DNA of 64,000 nt from an uncultured Nitrospina sp. GTDB lineage: Bacteria > Nitrospinota > Nitrospinia > Nitrospinales > VA-1. Shown here piece after piece: positions 47,930-58,740 of this stretch (positions within the stretch are counted from its first letter, which is position 1; the number at the start of each line of letters is the position of its first letter). Below the pieces are notes generated by a model. It saw nothing but the letters and a program-made list of their open reading frames with translations, did no database searches and was not told the DNA's origin. The stretch covers positions 7,014 through 71,013 of the forward strand of contig CAYFNV010000003.1 of the NCBI GenBank assembly GCA_964344595.1. Reading direction: 5' to 3'. Both the position numbers and the translations under genes were made by a program.

Positions 47930-49438
47930 CTAAGGATAAAGAGGAAGTTGAGATAATTCATCAAGATGCAACCCGGTTGTTTGATCAATGAGGTGAATCA
48001 CGCTTGCATCCATCACCTCCATTAACGGGCCGGGATACAAACCAATACTCAATACGAGGATAACCAATGGGATAAGCGTAGCCAATTCCCGTTGAGATAA
48101 ATCCGGGAGTACTTTGGCGGCTTCTGTATTTGGCACTCCCAACGCAACTCTTTGGAGCATCCACAGCATATATGCGGCAGCTAAAACAATACCCCCCATT
48201 GAGATCAGTACCATCGCAAAGCTGACAGAGGAAGTTCCTACTAAGACTAAAAATTCGCCAATGAAGTTACAGGTTCCTGGCAGTCCAAAGGCAGCAACCG
48301 AAAACAAAAAGAACAATGCAACGAATCTTGGCATCGGTTTATGCAAGCCACCATAGTCAGAAATTGCTCGACTATGAGTGCGGTCATACAATTGGCCAAC
48401 GCAGATAAATAAGGCGGCAGTAGTAATTCCGTGATTAAACATTTGCAAGACTGCACCCTGAATGCCCTGGCTATTGAACACAAAAATGCCAAGGGTAACA
48501 AAACCCATATGGGAAACTGAAGAATAGGCCACGAGTTTTTTAAGGTCTGACTGAGCCAAAGCCAAATACCCGCCATAGATAATTCCTACGACCGATAACC
48601 ACAAAATAGATGGGGCAAAGTTAGCCGAAGCCTCTGGAAACATAGGCAGACAAAAACGCAAAAATCCATATCCTCCCATTTTCAGCAGAACACCAGCCAG
48701 AATCACACTGCCAGCCGTAGGGGCTTCAGAATGTGCGTCAGGGAGCCATGTATGAAAAGGAACCATTGGCATTTTTATGGCAAAAGCCATAAAGAACGCC
48801 AGGAAAAGCCAGAATTGTTGATCTGAAGAATAATTTTGCTCAGCTAACACCAACAAGTCGTAGGTATGTCCACCATTCAGGTAAATGCCCAATATACCCA
48901 CCAATAACAGTAAACTTCCTGTGAGACTGTACAAAACAAATTTAAGCCCGGCAGCAATTCGATTTGGTCCTCCCCAGAGAATAATCATGAAGTACATGGG
49001 AATCATTGTCAGTTCCCATAACATGAAAAAAAGGAACAGATCGAGTGCAGTGAAAACTACGATCATGGCACCTTCTACCAATAATATCAGTGAGAGATAA
49101 GCTCGTACTCGTGTTGTAATACCCGTCCACGAACAAAGGACACAGAGTGGGCAAAGAAAGGTCGTGAGGATTACCAGAAGAATACTAATGCCATCAACAC
49201 CAACTGCATATTGAATATTAAACGTAGGCATCCATTCCACGCGTTCAACAAACTGCATGCCTTGCTGGGTGGAGTCAAATTCCCTCCAGAGTATCAGTGA
49301 CAGAATAAACTCCGCTATTGTAGTTGCAAGGGCAATTCGCCGGATCGATTCTTCATCACGCACAAATGACATAATGACGATACCTGAAAAAGGTATGGCA
49401 ATCATCCAGCTAATCAGGTGATCCATTAACAGGTTCAT
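47930..49438 (-). CDS. NuoM/MrpD-like antiporter-type subunit (PF00361 family), 502 aa
   Basis: FNIQYAVGVDGISILLVILT... NuoM-type N-terminus with ~14 TM helices. GGAGG SD. Confidence 0.85.
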   Translation of the reverse strand: MNLLMDHLISWMIAIPFSGIVIMSFVRDEESIRRIALATTIAEFILSLILWREFDSTQQGMQFVERVEWMPTFNIQYAVGVDGISILLVILTTFLCPLCVLCSWTGITTRVRAYLSLILLVEGAMIVVFTALDLFLFFMLWELTMIPMYFMIILWGGPNRIAAGLKFVLYSLTGSLLLLVGILGIYLNGGHTYDLLVLAEQNYSSDQQFWLFLAFFMAFAIKMPMVPFHTWLPDAHSEAPTAGSVILAGVLLKMGGYGFLRFCLPMFPEASANFAPSILWLSVVGIIYGGYLALAQSDLKKLVAYSSVSHMGFVTLGIFVFNSQGIQGAVLQMFNHGITTAALFICVGQLYDRTHSRAISDYGGLHKPMPRFVALFFLFSVAAFGLPGTCNFIGEFLVLVGTSSVSFAMVLISMGGIVLAAAYMLWMLQRVALGVPNTEAAKVLPDLSQRELATLIPLVILVLSIGLYPGPLMEVMDASVIHLIDQTTGLHLDELSQLPLYP

Positions 49439-49562
49439 TTATGAAACCTCCTTCCTTCGGAAGAGGAAAGCTCCTGAATTTTCAAGTTGGAATAAGAAAA
49501 CTTCCATAAGCTCACTTGTAATCAGATCTACTTTTAAGAACCGAAGATACATCCGGCACTCT

Positions 49563-58600: not shown

Positions 58601-58740
58601 ATGGTTCGCATGGGCCAAAACGGCGCAATGGGTTCACTTGCGTCCAATACAATTTGTCGAACCTGATCACGCTCTTCAGAGGAAAGGGACTTTGTTGAAA
58701 TAGCACTCATATTGAAAGATTTACCTTTTTGATCGAGCAC
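55681..58740 (-). CDS. dabA: DabA (DUF2309/UPF0753) putative inorganic-carbon-pump catalytic subunit; start GTG 58740 or ATG 58710
   Basis: [56 protein letters not shown] and [17 protein letters not shown]. The C-x-D and H-x15-C putative Zn ligands are all present. Confidence 0.9.
   Translation of the reverse strand: [1019 protein letters not shown]

Follow-up and report, generated by a model that had tools for sequence, protein, structure and literature searches.

A cluster of ten genes (positions 47930–58740, all on the minus strand) from an uncultured Nitrospinaceae bacterium, a marine nitrite oxidizer, was found to combine a gene for a DabA protein with an Mrp/Mbh-type membrane block and with genes for two further subunits of the NuoL and NuoM types. 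The product of this layout is probably a large ion-driven machine for carbon uptake that had not been described before. The reading that we prefer, to which we assign a probability of roughly 0.55, is that the ten genes encode one membrane complex, with DabA placed on the L subunit and the vectorial hydration of CO2 coupled to a cation gradient. The features of the cluster are collected in Table 1, and the window refers to the whole stretch of 64,000 nucleotides that was analyzed.

Table 1. Coordinates and family assignments of the features in and next to the dabA cluster
Feature	Position	Strand	Family or basis
dabA	55681..58740	-	PF10070, 870 bits; beta-carbonic-anhydrase-like vectorial CO2 hydratase subunit (predicted)
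mrpE / mbhA-like	55041..55547	-	PF01899 (MNHE)
mrpF / mbhB-like	54778..55044	-	PF04066 (MrpF_PhaF)
mrpG / mbhC-like	54477..54776	-	PF03334 (PhaG_MnhG); above TIGR01300 cut-off
fused mbhD+mbhE-like	53953..54480	-	PF13244 (residues 11-74) + PF20501 (residues 120-173)
mnhB / mrpB / mbhF-like	53501..53983	-	PF04039 (MnhB)
mrpC / nuoK / mbhG-like	53131..53508	-	PF00420 (Oxidored_q2)
mrpD / mbhH-like antiporter-like subunit	51665..53134	-	PF00361
NuoL-type subunit without TM12 lysine	49563..51668	-	PF00662 + PF00361
three tandem 27-aa repeats in NuoL-type lateral helix	49662..49904	-	aa 589-669
NuoM-type antiporter-like subunit	47930..49438	-	PF00361
small winged-helix putative regulator, 5' of dabA	58913..59209	-	MarR-like, below Pfam cut-off
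weak terminator-like hairpin + U-run in dabA-mrpE spacer	55625..55667	-	sequence inspection

The genes are arranged in the order dabA, mrpE, mrpF, mrpG, fused mbhD/E, mnhB, mrpC, mrpD, NuoL-type, and NuoM-type. The ten family assignments and coordinates proposed in the first-pass annotation all hold in a Pfam search, in which the three proteins with a PF00361 domain are 489, 701, and 502 aa long and the 701-aa protein also carries PF00662. The junction sizes were confirmed as well. The seven junctions from mrpE to the NuoL-type gene are overlaps or gaps of a few nucleotides at most, including a 4-nt overlap between mrpD and the start of the NuoL-type gene, and the spacers between dabA and mrpE and between the NuoL-type and NuoM-type genes are 133 and 124 nt, respectively. 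As had been noted, genes for NuoH, NuoB/C/D/I, hydrogenase, and formate dehydrogenase are absent from the cluster and its flanks, and the same was found for NuoA, NuoJ, and NuoN. The flanks contain a winged-helix gene, response regulators, a GGDEF fragment, and a HigBA pair.

The identification of the first gene product as a DabA (DUF2309) protein was upheld, and the motifs quoted for it are present. The PF10070 match lies far above the cut-off of 25 bits and extends over residues 33–991 and profile positions 3–747 of 747, and the protein aligns with the solved DabA2 (9rd0_A) at E = 1.5e-112. The proposed zinc pattern was located at C512, D514, H710, and C725, which correspond to C351, D353, H524, and C539 of DabA2; the His-Cys spacing of 15 residues is the same as that of H524/C539, and the ligands are invariant across 35 diverse DabAs. 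Because homologues align from residue 11, the true start of dabA is probably the ATG at 58710, 30 nt downstream of the listed GTG. The membrane finger of DabA is a hydrophobic hairpin with an invariant D611, which aligns to the Glu of DabA1-type proteins; for Glu444 of DabA2 there is no direct alignment, because it falls in a segment that phmmer did not align. The finger residue is Asp in 11 of 11 DabAs with a known NuoL-type partner and Glu in all five of those with a known DabB partner. With invariant zinc ligands and a finger residue that matches its partner, this DabA looks functional.

The earlier NuoL-like and NuoM-like calls were sustained and could be made more precise by bit scores and NCBIfam models. 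The best PDB match of the 701-aa protein is Paracoccus NuoL (285 bits, vs 139 for DabB2 and 124 for MrpA), and its score exceeds the NDH_I_L cut-off (TIGR01974, 474 vs 407.5). The 502-aa protein best matches Paracoccus NuoM (448 bits) and exceeds the cut-offs of NDH_I_M (TIGR01972) and of the equivalog NF004499. By these sequence measures, the two proteins are true NuoL-type and NuoM-type subunits and not of the MrpA/MrpD or DabB type. The NuoL-type subunit retains E144, D178, K229, H334, H338, and K342, and in TM12 of 48 of 48 orthologues K399 is replaced by Ser, Pro, or Ala and D400 by Tyr. K399 and D400 are also missing from the L subunit of three more distant loci (L080, L085, and L086), and the canonical DabB proteins of neighboring operons are likewise without the TM12 Lys. 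In DAB2, Glu444 of the DabA finger takes up the place of this Lys and completes the proton path of DabB2 (PMC13144422). Since its TM12 Lys has been lost, as in DabB, the NuoL-type subunit looks like the equivalent of DabB and is the proposed docking site for DabA. The TM5 Glu, TM7 Lys, and TM12 Glu of the NuoM-type subunit are all present. The AlphaFold model of the NuoL-type subunit was too poor in quality for use.

The block between dabA and the NuoL-type gene has the order E, F, G, D/E, B, C, D, which is exactly that of mbhA-H (subunit equivalences from PMC7419157), in line with the Mbh/Mbx-type order proposed in the first-pass annotation. The gene that it called MbhD/DUF4040-like does encode an MbhD domain, and the 175-aa product is now recognized as a fusion of MbhD and MbhE that corresponds to the C-terminal domain of MrpA (NF009159, 160 vs a cut-off of 141). 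Of the Mrp functions, B through G are encoded in the cluster, and MbhD/E supplies the C-terminal domain of MrpA; the only counterpart of the MrpA N-terminal domain is the NuoL-family protein, and the block, with one antiporter-like subunit, lacks its own subunit of the NuoL/MrpA-N type. The TLTPGT and VH motifs of MrpE are kept in 57 sequences and align with the P114/H131 region named in PMC7419157. The Asp of the MrpF motif GPTIFDRV is conserved, and D35 of MrpF has been proposed to function in Na+ translocation in Mrp (PMC7419157). The His of the MrpG motif SRSH (His32 in Mrp) is also conserved. MrpD, for which the best PDB matches are MbsH (6u8y_H), MbhH, and MrpD, has the TM5 Glu, TM7 Lys, and TM12 Lys. 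The best solved relatives of MrpC are MbsG and MbhG, and this subunit has an invariant Gln and a Val where Mrp has His37 and His40. The position of the Gln is occupied by His37 in Mrp, Glu in MbsG, Asp in MbhG, and Glu in NuoK (PMC7419157); with His, Glu, or Asp in all characterized relatives, the ion path through the small subunits may differ here.

When 185,579 species genomes were scanned on the basis of DabA, 75 loci were obtained, nearly all of them labelled Nitrospinota or Nitrospirota (Nitrospirales). At every locus with DNA beyond dabA, the genes from mrpE onward are found in the same order and on the same strand; approximately 47 loci are complete, and no locus contradicts the gene order. 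The layout recurs in Nitrospinota, Nitrospirota, and Planctomycetota (a Pirellulales MAG, L085), and the more distant DabA clades that carry the cluster have 43–56% DabA identity, so that the linkage of dabA with Mrp genes, noticed in the window, is conserved down to 43%. Conservation in dozens of loci from three phyla places the order of the cluster beyond chance. This linkage, like the gene content and the residue patterns, was observed directly. Genes dabA and mrpE overlap at four loci (L082, L083, L087, and L088), the gap between them is 6–12 nt in six members of the clade, and junctions of 0–12 nt were found in several distant loci. The gap is 200–590 nt in some Nitrospirales, and in three loci of this order (L020, L048, and L062) dabA is separated from mrpE by a DAB1-type operon in inverted orientation, and thus cotranscription of the two genes is not universal. 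No DabB or other PF00361 partner for DabA was found elsewhere in the window. In several relatives, ordinary DAB1-type operons, each with its own DabA, adjoin the cluster. The NiFe-hydrogenase-like module (MbhJKLN) and the NuoH-like MbhM were not found in the relatives' loci either.

At four loci (L013, L039, L057, and L014), the Mrp block is just 44–65% identical to all other sampled blocks; the DabA proteins of these loci are 72–79% identical to that of the window, and DabA of L039 is 90% identical to that of L002. By these identities, the architecture was kept through replacement of the Mrp block. The nearest relative without Mrp (L080) has the arrangement DabA-NuoL(671)-NuoM(502)-Usp-SulP. 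With DabA-NuoL-NuoM(-SulP) as the nearest Mrp-less form, the Mrp block appears to sit inside a DabA-L-M system, and the occurrence of DabA-L-M on its own in L080 indicates that Mrp is not needed for the pairing of DabA with L. DabC from neighboring DAB1-type operons shows weak homology to NuoM (E = 2e-5), which agrees with a structural statement in the DAB1 preprint (bioRxiv 10.64898/2026.05.01.722082). A beta-carbonic anhydrase (beta-CA) gene and a SulP transporter gene lie directly 5' of the cluster in L085, and a SulP gene lies upstream of it in L086. PII and MpsC-type genes, SulP, and beta-CA were found in association at the loci of relatives, NhaA/NhaB and Mrp genes are frequent neighbors of DabA genes, and nonautotrophic Planctomycetota are among the hosts.

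The proposed machine would belong to the DAB-type vectorial carbonic anhydrases, with its membrane part expanded into an arm resembling complex I and Mrp. DabA would lie on the cytoplasmic face of the NuoL-type subunit, and its hydrophobic finger with Asp611 would insert at the usual site of the NuoL TM12 Lys/Asp, comparable to Glu444 of DabA2 in DabB2. The NuoM-type subunit would stand in place of the degenerate DabC of DAB1, and beyond it would follow the MrpD/MbhH-like subunit and then the Mbh-type block of small subunits, MrpC, MnhB, MbhD/E, MrpG, MrpF, and MrpE. In Mrp and Mbh, the small-subunit block is thought to carry the Na+ path. The flow of cations down their gradient through the arm would drive the one-way hydration of CO2 to cytoplasmic bicarbonate and would supply inorganic carbon (Ci) to a low-energy marine autotroph. 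We infer the physical assembly, the operating direction, and the coupling ion of such a complex. The suggestion in the first-pass annotation that DabA serves as the peripheral module of a complex-I-like arm is supported, at the level of sequence, by the conserved linkage, the DabB-like loss of the TM12 Lys from L, and the covariation of the finger residue. The conserved Na+-path residues of Mrp, the longer L helix in the presence of Mrp, and a graded series of systems that includes the weakly NuoM-like DabC also argue for a single complex. Counted against it is the 133-nt dabA-mrpE spacer with its weak terminator-like hairpin, ACAGGUAAU...AUUACCUGU followed by GUUUCUUUUU; the folding z of the spacer is -2.3, and the hairpin is not conserved, with similar features in 13 of 52 relatives. 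More tentatively, and with somewhat less than an even chance of being correct, the complex would be a non-redox member of the complex I/Mrp superfamily with DabA as its sole peripheral enzyme, in which an Mbh-type Na+ module, together with three antiporter-like subunits, channels the sodium-motive force of seawater into one-way CO2 capture. The possible use of a sodium gradient via the Mrp block is the most speculative step, and the report that DAB2 is proton-coupled, not sodium-coupled, counts against it.

The same genes could also encode two co-located machines, of which one would be a DAB-like CO2 pump composed of DabA and the NuoL-type and NuoM-type subunits, and the other a separate Mbh-like Mrp cation/proton exchanger, co-expressed to balance the protons and Na+ moved by Ci uptake, for example, beside a SulP/BicA-type Na+/bicarbonate symport. 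We regard this arrangement as rather unlikely. DabA-L-M-SulP clusters without Mrp are known (L080; clade C of PMC5700660), SulP genes adjoin the cluster in L085 and L086, the dabA-mrpE and L-M spacers suggest sub-operons, and a model for the cooperation of Mrp with BicA has been presented for cyanobacteria and Nitrospira (PMC7784846). However, the Mrp block is placed between dabA and nuoL, not beside them, and mrpD and nuoL overlap. With its one antiporter-like subunit, the block lacks the MrpA-N/NuoL-type subunit that is required by bacterial Mrp, and the same block is never free-standing in Mbh (subunit maps of PMC7419157). The order is invariant in three phyla and through block replacement, and L has a longer lateral helix in the presence of Mrp.

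Published genome descriptions have favored a conventional Na+/H+ antiporter for salt or alkali tolerance that contains two MrpA/MrpD-like subunits in addition to the usual set; on that reading, DabA would be an unrelated or merely regulatory neighbor. Lücker 2013 named a putative eight-subunit Mnh-type Na+/H+ antiporter, and Daebeler 2020 and a 2025 comparison of the Nitrospirales took the nuoL/nuoM extras as additional mrp-like genes; no genome paper was found that links the Mrp/NuoL/NuoM part, described there as a salt/pH antiporter, to DabA. Although the Na+-path residues of Mrp are conserved, this reading is highly improbable given the adjacency of dabA at every sampled locus (with stop/start overlap in several clades), the lack of another PF00361 partner for DabA in the window, the DabB-like loss of the TM12 Lys, the covariation of the DabA finger with partner type, and the beta-CA and SulP genes that adjoin the Pirellulales cluster. 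It is likewise highly improbable that the complex runs in the opposite direction or serves pH homeostasis, with a main task other than carbon supply; DabA would then, by CO2 hydration or bicarbonate dehydration, provide or use up protons in the cytoplasm and thereby power or regulate the extrusion of Na+ by cells in alkaline seawater. The DAB homologue MpsAB was originally reported as a membrane-potential system related to Na+, and it complements mutants in Na+ transporters (PMC13144422), and the nonautotrophic hosts and the NhaA/NhaB and Mrp genes often found beside DabA genes would fit such a role. Against it, the solved DAB structures indicate a gated, one-way hydration in which the reverse reaction is blocked (bioRxiv 10.64898/2026.05.01.722082 among the sources), and the SulP, beta-CA, PII, and MpsC-type genes and DAB1-type operons nearby point to Ci supply.

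The description of known DABs as DabA plus one DabB is valid for DAB2 but not in general, as DAB1 includes the NuoM-like DabC as a third subunit (bioRxiv 10.64898/2026.05.01.722082), and DabA-NuoL-NuoM clusters were noted in 2017 (COGNAT "clade C", PMC5700660). The cluster shares with DAB1 (Thermocrinis albus and Halothiobacillus neapolitanus) a PF10070 DabA with a buried beta-CA-like zinc site, a membrane-inserted elbow or finger, a NuoL-like partner without the TM12 Lys, and a second membrane subunit in the NuoM position. It differs in that the partner, which falls outside the DabB clade, is a true NuoL-family protein whose lateral helix is long; the degenerate DabC is replaced by a complete NuoM that retains its charged residues; dabA and the partner gene are separated by seven more genes of the Mrp/Mbh type; the finger carries Asp rather than Glu; and the flexible cytosolic arm of DabA1 is missing. 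With DAB2/MpsAB (DabA2-DabB2, PDB 9rd0), it has in common the DabA homology, the identical zinc ligands and spacing, and the concept of one-way CO2 hydration driven by an ion gradient. However, DAB2 has two subunits and is reported to be proton-coupled and Na+-independent (PMC13144422), whereas three antiporter-like subunits and a putative Na+ module are encoded here. The Nitrospiraceae/Nitrospira cluster L080 (DabA 39–55% identical by segment, NuoL-type 47%, NuoM-type 53%) has the same K399-less L subunit and finger Asp, but no Mrp/Mbh block and one lateral-helix unit instead of three.

All of the small subunits, the mbhA-H order, the best matches of the C-like and D-like subunits (MbsG/MbhG and MbsH/MbhH), and the MrpE, MrpF, and MrpG motifs are shared with the Mrp (CPA3) and Mbh/MBS modules (PDB 6z16, 7qru, 6cfw, and 6u8y). 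Unlike Mrp, the cluster has no Mrp-type MrpA N-terminal domain and has Gln at the key TM2 position of MrpC; unlike Mbh/MBS, it has no hydrogenase, sulfane-reductase module, or NuoH-like subunit, and the sole soluble partner encoded is the carbonic-anhydrase-like protein. Of complex I (NDH-1), NuoL and NuoM are present, whereas NuoN, A, J, and H and the Q-module subunits B, C, D, and I are absent. A functional analogue is found in cyanobacterial NDH-1MS and NDH-1MS' (CupA/CupB on NdhF3-NdhD3 or NdhF4-NdhD4), where a vectorial CO2 hydratase is also placed on the distal NuoL/NuoM-type subunits of a complex-I-like arm. CupA/B are unrelated to DabA, however, and no Pfam match to the CupA/CupB family was found among the cluster proteins; the NuoL-type subunit scores 153 bits against the ndhF3 model (TIGR01960, cut-off 589). 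The cyanobacterial complexes also transfer electrons from ferredoxin to plastoquinone via a full Q-module, whereas no redox module is encoded here.

If the reading as a non-redox, sodium-driven complex is correct, the hosts of this machine would be the main nitrite oxidizers of the ocean together with some Nitrospirota and Planctomycetota. In that case, extant systems graded from DAB2 (A+B) through DAB1 (A+B+half-M) and A-L-M to A-Mrp-L-M would preserve the module-by-module assembly of long complex-I-type membrane arms.

In an alignment, the lateral amphipathic helix of the NuoL-type subunit has two more 27-aa units than that of E. coli NuoL, the repeat starts are 27 residues apart, and the lengths of homologues are trimodal at 672, 699, and 726 aa. 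There are three units in the window, L085, and L086, and one in the Mrp-less L080. The same size quantum is seen in the ~26-aa lateral-helix insertions of the Nitrospira "2M" complex I and Complex_I_3 of Ca. Manganitrophaceae (PMC9040806), which have extra antiporter-like subunits but are redox complexes with full nuo operons. Here, by contrast, orthologues of identical gene content have between 1 and about 5 repeats, which does not fit a simple ruler of one unit per subunit, and the lineage with the divergent Mrp block has a short lateral helix although Mrp is present.

The putative regulator gene 5' of dabA has only weak MarR/HTH matches in Pfam, and a comparison with MpsC showed that its product is not MpsC-like. 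Twenty relatives, almost all with the label Nitrospinota, have this gene at the corresponding site with 64–82% identity, and in N. watsonii a winged-helix paralogue also lies 5' of the neighboring DAB1-type operon.

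The gene row was established from an ORF listing together with Pfam matches (table below). The first-pass annotation had assigned the 1019-residue ORF to DUF2309/DabA, which was confirmed by its match to PF10070, and had placed after it mrpE, mrpF, mrpG, an mbhD-like gene, mnhB, mrpC, mrpD, and the genes for NuoL-like and NuoM-like proteins (the L and M subunits). This row was found as described, with all ten genes co-directional. Every junction from mrpE through the gene for L is an overlap or a gap of a few nucleotides, and mrpD, the last gene of the Mrp block, overlaps nuoL by 4 nt. 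Gaps of 133 and 124 nt separate dabA from mrpE and L from M, respectively. The reported absence of genes for NuoH, a Q-module, a hydrogenase, or a formate dehydrogenase was also correct for the cluster and its flanks, as was the Mbh-type order beginning with E-F-G: using the subunit equivalences of PMC7419157, the sequence E, F, G, D/E, B, C, D is identical to that of mbhA-H. No second DabA or DabB was found anywhere in the 64 kb. The closest DabA homologues are 71-86% identical and, where named, are from Nitrospina, Nitrospinaceae, or Nitrospinota; the window was accordingly assigned to an uncultured marine Nitrospinaceae bacterium, a nitrite oxidizer fixing CO2 via the reductive TCA cycle (PMC3578206). 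In standard annotation the genes are called "DUF2309 protein", "Na+/H+ antiporter subunits", and "NADH-quinone oxidoreductase subunits L and M", and these names conceal the DabA-Mrp system.

Coordinates of the DabA-Mrp cluster and of other features in the window
Feature	Coordinates	Strand	Family or remark
dabA	55681-58740	minus	PF10070, 870 bits
mrpE	55041-55547	minus	PF01899
mrpF	54778-55044	minus	PF04066
mrpG	54477-54776	minus	PF03334
fused mbhD/E	53953-54480	minus	PF13244 + PF20501
mnhB	53501-53983	minus	PF04039
mrpC	53131-53508	minus	PF00420
mrpD	51665-53134	minus	PF00361
701-residue NuoL-type gene (L)	49563-51668	minus	PF00662 + PF00361
27-residue repeats of L	49662-49904		residues 589-669
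502-residue NuoM-type gene (M)	47930-49438	minus	PF00361
winged-helix gene	58913-59209		upstream of dabA
low-GC stretch	42000-47817		GC 0.35-0.37
GGDEF-only ORF	47347-47817		156 residues, begins at profile position 24
HigB-like toxin gene	46548-46838	minus	
HTH_3 antitoxin-like gene	46228-46614	minus	
protein-kinase N-terminal fragment	45680-46051		123 residues
flagellin gene	25854-26717	minus	full length
flagellin gene	26817-27674	minus	full length
flagellin gene	28536-29393	minus	full length
flagellin gene	29749-30774	minus	full length
flagellin gene	31467-32324	minus	full length
partial Flagellin_N ORF	30680-31417	minus	overlaps one full-length flagellin gene

The window DabA was matched to the solved DabA2 (PDB 9rd0) with E = 1.5e-112, and its zinc ligands are C512, D514, H710, and C725. 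The assignment of the 701-residue protein as an MrpA-type or DabB-type subunit was rejected, since its best solved relative is Paracoccus NuoL (285 bits, versus 139 for DabB2 and 124 for MrpA) and it passes NCBIfam model TIGR01974. The 502-residue protein scores 448 bits against Paracoccus NuoM and passes both TIGR01972 and the equivalog model. The initial NuoL-like and NuoM-like calls were thus upheld and sharpened; judged by bit scores and NCBIfam models, the two proteins are a genuine NuoL-family member and a genuine NuoM.

DabB2 lacks the Lys399/Asp400 pair found in TM12 of NuoL, and Glu444 from the "finger" helix of DabA2 substitutes for it (PMC13144422). The window L subunit retains E144, D178, K229, H254, H334, H338, and K342 (E. 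coli NuoL numbering) and has Ser at 399 and Tyr at 400. None of 48 orthologues has Lys at position 399, which is Ser, Pro, or Ala, and all 48 have Tyr at position 400; the same pattern was found in the L subunits of three more distant loci (L080, L085, and L086). The canonical DabBs of neighboring operons likewise have no TM12 Lys, and the NuoM-type and MrpD-type subunits retain a TM12 Glu or Lys. Direct alignment to the DabA2 finger by PDB search was unsuccessful with two queries, as HMMER left residues ~411-481 unaligned, and the finger was instead aligned with DabA1-type proteins from neighboring operons. The hydrophobic hairpin is kept, and an invariant Asp611 aligns with the Glu of the DabA1-type proteins. 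Among 35 diverse DabAs, the finger residue is Asp in all 11 with a known long, K399-less NuoL-type partner and Glu in all 5 with a known canonical DabB partner. Taking it together with the loss of K399, we regard this co-variation as the strongest indication from sequence that L is the equivalent of DabB. The DabC proteins of neighboring operons are weakly homologous to NuoM (E = 2e-5), which fits the DAB1 preprint, where DabC superposes on the NuoM helices adjoining NuoL (bioRxiv 10.64898/2026.05.01.722082). A full NuoM would take the position of DabC.

Within the Mrp block, the 489-residue MrpD and the NuoK-like MrpC are best matched by subunits H and G of archaeal MBS/Mbh complexes, above bacterial MrpD and MrpC. 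The Asp of MrpF, the His of MrpG, and the TLTPGT and VH motifs of MrpE, all implicated in the Mrp cation path (PMC7419157), are conserved in 54-57 sequences. In the window and 53 orthologues, TM2 of the MrpC/NuoK-like subunit carries an invariant Gln at the position where Mrp has His37, MbsG has Glu, MbhG has Asp, and NuoK has Glu (PMC7419157). Only one subunit of the block is antiporter-like, and the block itself encodes none of the MrpA-N type.

Conservation was determined by a DabA-alignment scan of one genome per species across 185,579 species, followed by tblastn with the ten window proteins. Because the scan relied on clade-specific peptide patterns, which could not reveal other DabA clades, the 75 loci recovered represent this clade; nearly all are labeled Nitrospinota or Nitrospirota (Nitrospirales), and their DabAs are 57 to 84% identical to that of the window. 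Wherever the DNA extends past dabA, the genes from mrpE on follow in unchanged order and orientation; the full set of ten is found in about 47 loci, and no locus contradicting this pattern was found by tblastn in the 75-locus set. The linkage that the first-pass annotation saw in a single genome is thus conserved in its relatives. Six loci drawn from both phyla have a dabA-mrpE spacer of only 6-12 nt; most Nitrospinota have about 100-140 nt, and some Nitrospirales 200-590 nt. In three Nitrospirales loci (L020, L048, and L062), dabA is separated from mrpE by a complete, inverted DAB1-type operon, dabB-dabC-dabA, encoding proteins of 566-571, 358-378, and ~1082 residues; the L062 insert also holds one further ORF of 573 residues. 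A DAB1-type operon lies beside the cluster in four others (L001, L004, L019, and L047). In L058 (10001-13038) the DabA frame is apparently broken after about residue 690, with ~2 kb of extra DNA before mrpE, marking either a pseudogene or an error of long-read assembly. DabA fragments of the same clade (72-73% identity) were also seen on very short contigs of about 3.0 and 1.8 kb from two non-nitrifier MAGs, one of Phycisphaerales (L064) and one of KSB1 (L074). These could be mis-binned, or real given matches in Pirellulales and Fuerstiella.

The Mrp blocks of three Nitrospina loci (L013, L039, and L057) and one Nitrospirales locus (L014) share only 44-65% identity with any other block sampled, whereas their DabAs are 72-79% identical to the window protein and the L039 DabA is 90% identical to that of L002. 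A diverged block beside a similar DabA means that a homologous one, from an unsampled donor, has taken the place of the original block. The incoming blocks retain the gene order and tight junctions, and we regard the replacement as evidence for selection on the architecture itself. In these four loci the dabA-mrpE gaps are 9-12 nt and the L subunit is short (~646 residues).

More distant DabAs were sampled as the nearest 50%-identity representatives, of a family of 1821 clusters at E<=1e-30, with contigs obtained by exact-protein look-ups. The full block follows a DabA that is 48% identical in L082, with a dabA/mrpE overlap and NuoL after the block. The same overlap is found in L083 (DabA 43% identical, MpsC upstream, contig end at mrpD) and in L088 (contig end within mrpD). 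All ten genes are present in a nearly gap-free Nitrospiraceae cluster (L087) and in a Pirellulales MAG (L085), where genes for a beta-carbonic anhydrase and SulP lie directly upstream. L086, with NxrAB-like genes nearby, has SulP upstream and a protease gene inserted after dabA. Clusters without Mrp genes were found as DabA-NuoL(671)-NuoM(502)-Usp-SulP (L080, an arrangement already noted in 2017 as "clade C"; PMC5700660), MpsC-DabA-PII-DabB in Ca. Manganitrophaceae (L078), a tandem DabA pair (L081), and DabB-DabA (L084). In a rough neighbor-joining tree without support values, the Mrp-linked DabAs all fall in one broad subfamily that also contains, as nested branches, the DabAs of L-M and tandem type. 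By gene neighborhood, the SulP, beta-carbonic anhydrase, PII, and MpsC genes and the DAB1-type operons nearby tie the cluster to inorganic-carbon handling.

The C-terminal amphipathic helix of the window L subunit contains three tandem 27-residue repeats, two units above E. coli NuoL. The lengths of L homologues are trimodal at about 672, 699, and 726 residues (n = 120), and other orthologues have 646 and 754; the N. gracilis protein is the 726-residue version. The Mrp-less L080 has one repeat unit, and L085 and L086 have three. In Nitrospira 2M complex I and in Manganitrophaceae, a 26-residue insertion accompanies each extra pumping subunit (PMC9040806), and the longer lateral helix would be consistent with an arm extending past L-M. 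Helix length as a clean subunit count was rejected, since copy number shifts without a change in gene content (about 1 to 5 copies in L002, L010, L057, L058, and other orthologues of equal gene content). In the divergent-Mrp lineage, moreover, the helix is short despite the Mrp block. An AlphaFold2 model of the L subunit (25 homologues, 72-83% identity) predicted the repeats as separate helices, with a mean pLDDT of 49.9 that is too poor to inform the helix.

The gene content, conserved order, and residue patterns were read directly from these loci, and we infer that the ten proteins most likely form a single complex. The subunit order would be DabA / L / M / D / (C, B, D-E) / G, F, E, with DabA docked on L through its finger. 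Ion flow along the arm would trigger gated, one-way CO2 hydration, as described for DAB1 and DAB2. In the most speculative step, the Mbh-type block would let the seawater sodium gradient add to or replace the driving force; DAB2, in contrast, was reported to be Na+-independent (PMC13144422). The main rival is that DabA-L-M and a separate exchanger are two machines encoded together. The existence of Mrp-less clusters of the L080 type and the spacers within the cluster speak for such an arrangement. It is weakened by an Mrp block that lies inside the DabA-L-M unit, lacks an MrpA-N subunit, and overlaps nuoL through mrpD, and we consider it unlikely, though a serious contender. Operation of the single complex in reverse, or for pH homeostasis, is at odds with the DAB structures, which point to a one-way mechanism, and seems improbable.

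Previous studies of Nitrospina and Nitrospira noted the Mrp genes and extra nuoL/nuoM genes and read them as parts of a Na+/H+ antiporter (PMC3578206, PMC7784846, PMC12342949); the genome papers give the cluster only as a salt-tolerance antiporter. A plain salt or alkali antiporter would leave unexplained the invariant adjacency of dabA, the loss of K399, and the finger co-variation, and this published reading is marginally the least probable of the three alternatives. A 2026 survey listed "orphan" DabA genes with no PF00361 neighbor in two Nitrospira species (PMC13147460), and the DAB structure papers cover two- and three-subunit complexes only (bioRxiv 10.64898/2026.05.01.722082, PMC13144422). 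In the literature searched, for which coverage was incomplete, no linkage of DabA/DUF2309 to Mrp, Mnh, or Mbh genes was found, including for Nitrospina, Nitrospira, and Planctomycetes. None of the terms for the cluster genes was found in the supplementary files of the proteome study on N. marina, and the supplement for Ca. N. alkalitolerans gives mrpE/F/G and NuoL/NuoM-like genes with DUF2309 absent. The parts belong to known families; in the literature searched, they appear not to have been described together.

The DabA-Mrp layout is conserved and mechanistically suggestive. As one machine, it would present a third kind of peripheral module on an Mrp/complex-I-type arm, after hydrogenase/quinone-reductase and the cyanobacterial CupA/B, and the first powered by something other than electron transfer. 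It would also offer an experimental handle on conformational or electrostatic coupling along antiporter-like subunits, with a simple, assayable chemical reaction as the output. Nitrospina and marine Nitrospira subsist on very little energy and reportedly carry out much of dark-ocean carbon fixation; to our knowledge, their acquisition of inorganic carbon has barely been described. DAB systems are under test for engineering CO2-concentrating mechanisms, and a Na+-coupled or multi-ion-channel version would broaden that toolbox.

The cluster is flanked upstream by the small winged-helix gene and then by response-regulator/kinase genes, and downstream by a GGDEF fragment and a HigBA pair. The winged-helix gene, which comparison ruled out as an MpsC homologue, recurs in 20 related loci, of which nearly all are labeled Nitrospinota. 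Two paralogues with 77-78% identity to the window protein occur in N. watsonii (L001, 9642 and 21091), one preceding the DabA-Mrp cluster and the other the neighboring DAB1-type operon; this placement hints at a family of regulators dedicated to Ci-uptake operons. A standard terminator and promoter scan gave nothing in either spacer and no excess of sites. A weak hairpin with a U-run was seen after dabA by eye and by folding; it is not conserved in relatives and was therefore not treated as a proven terminator. Just downstream of the cluster, the HigB-like and HTH_3 genes form a predicted type II toxin-antitoxin pair. The low-GC stretch contains apparent gene fragments and may be a degraded or acquired region at the cluster boundary. 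Elsewhere in the window, the five full-length flagellin genes are arranged in tandem within 25854-32324.
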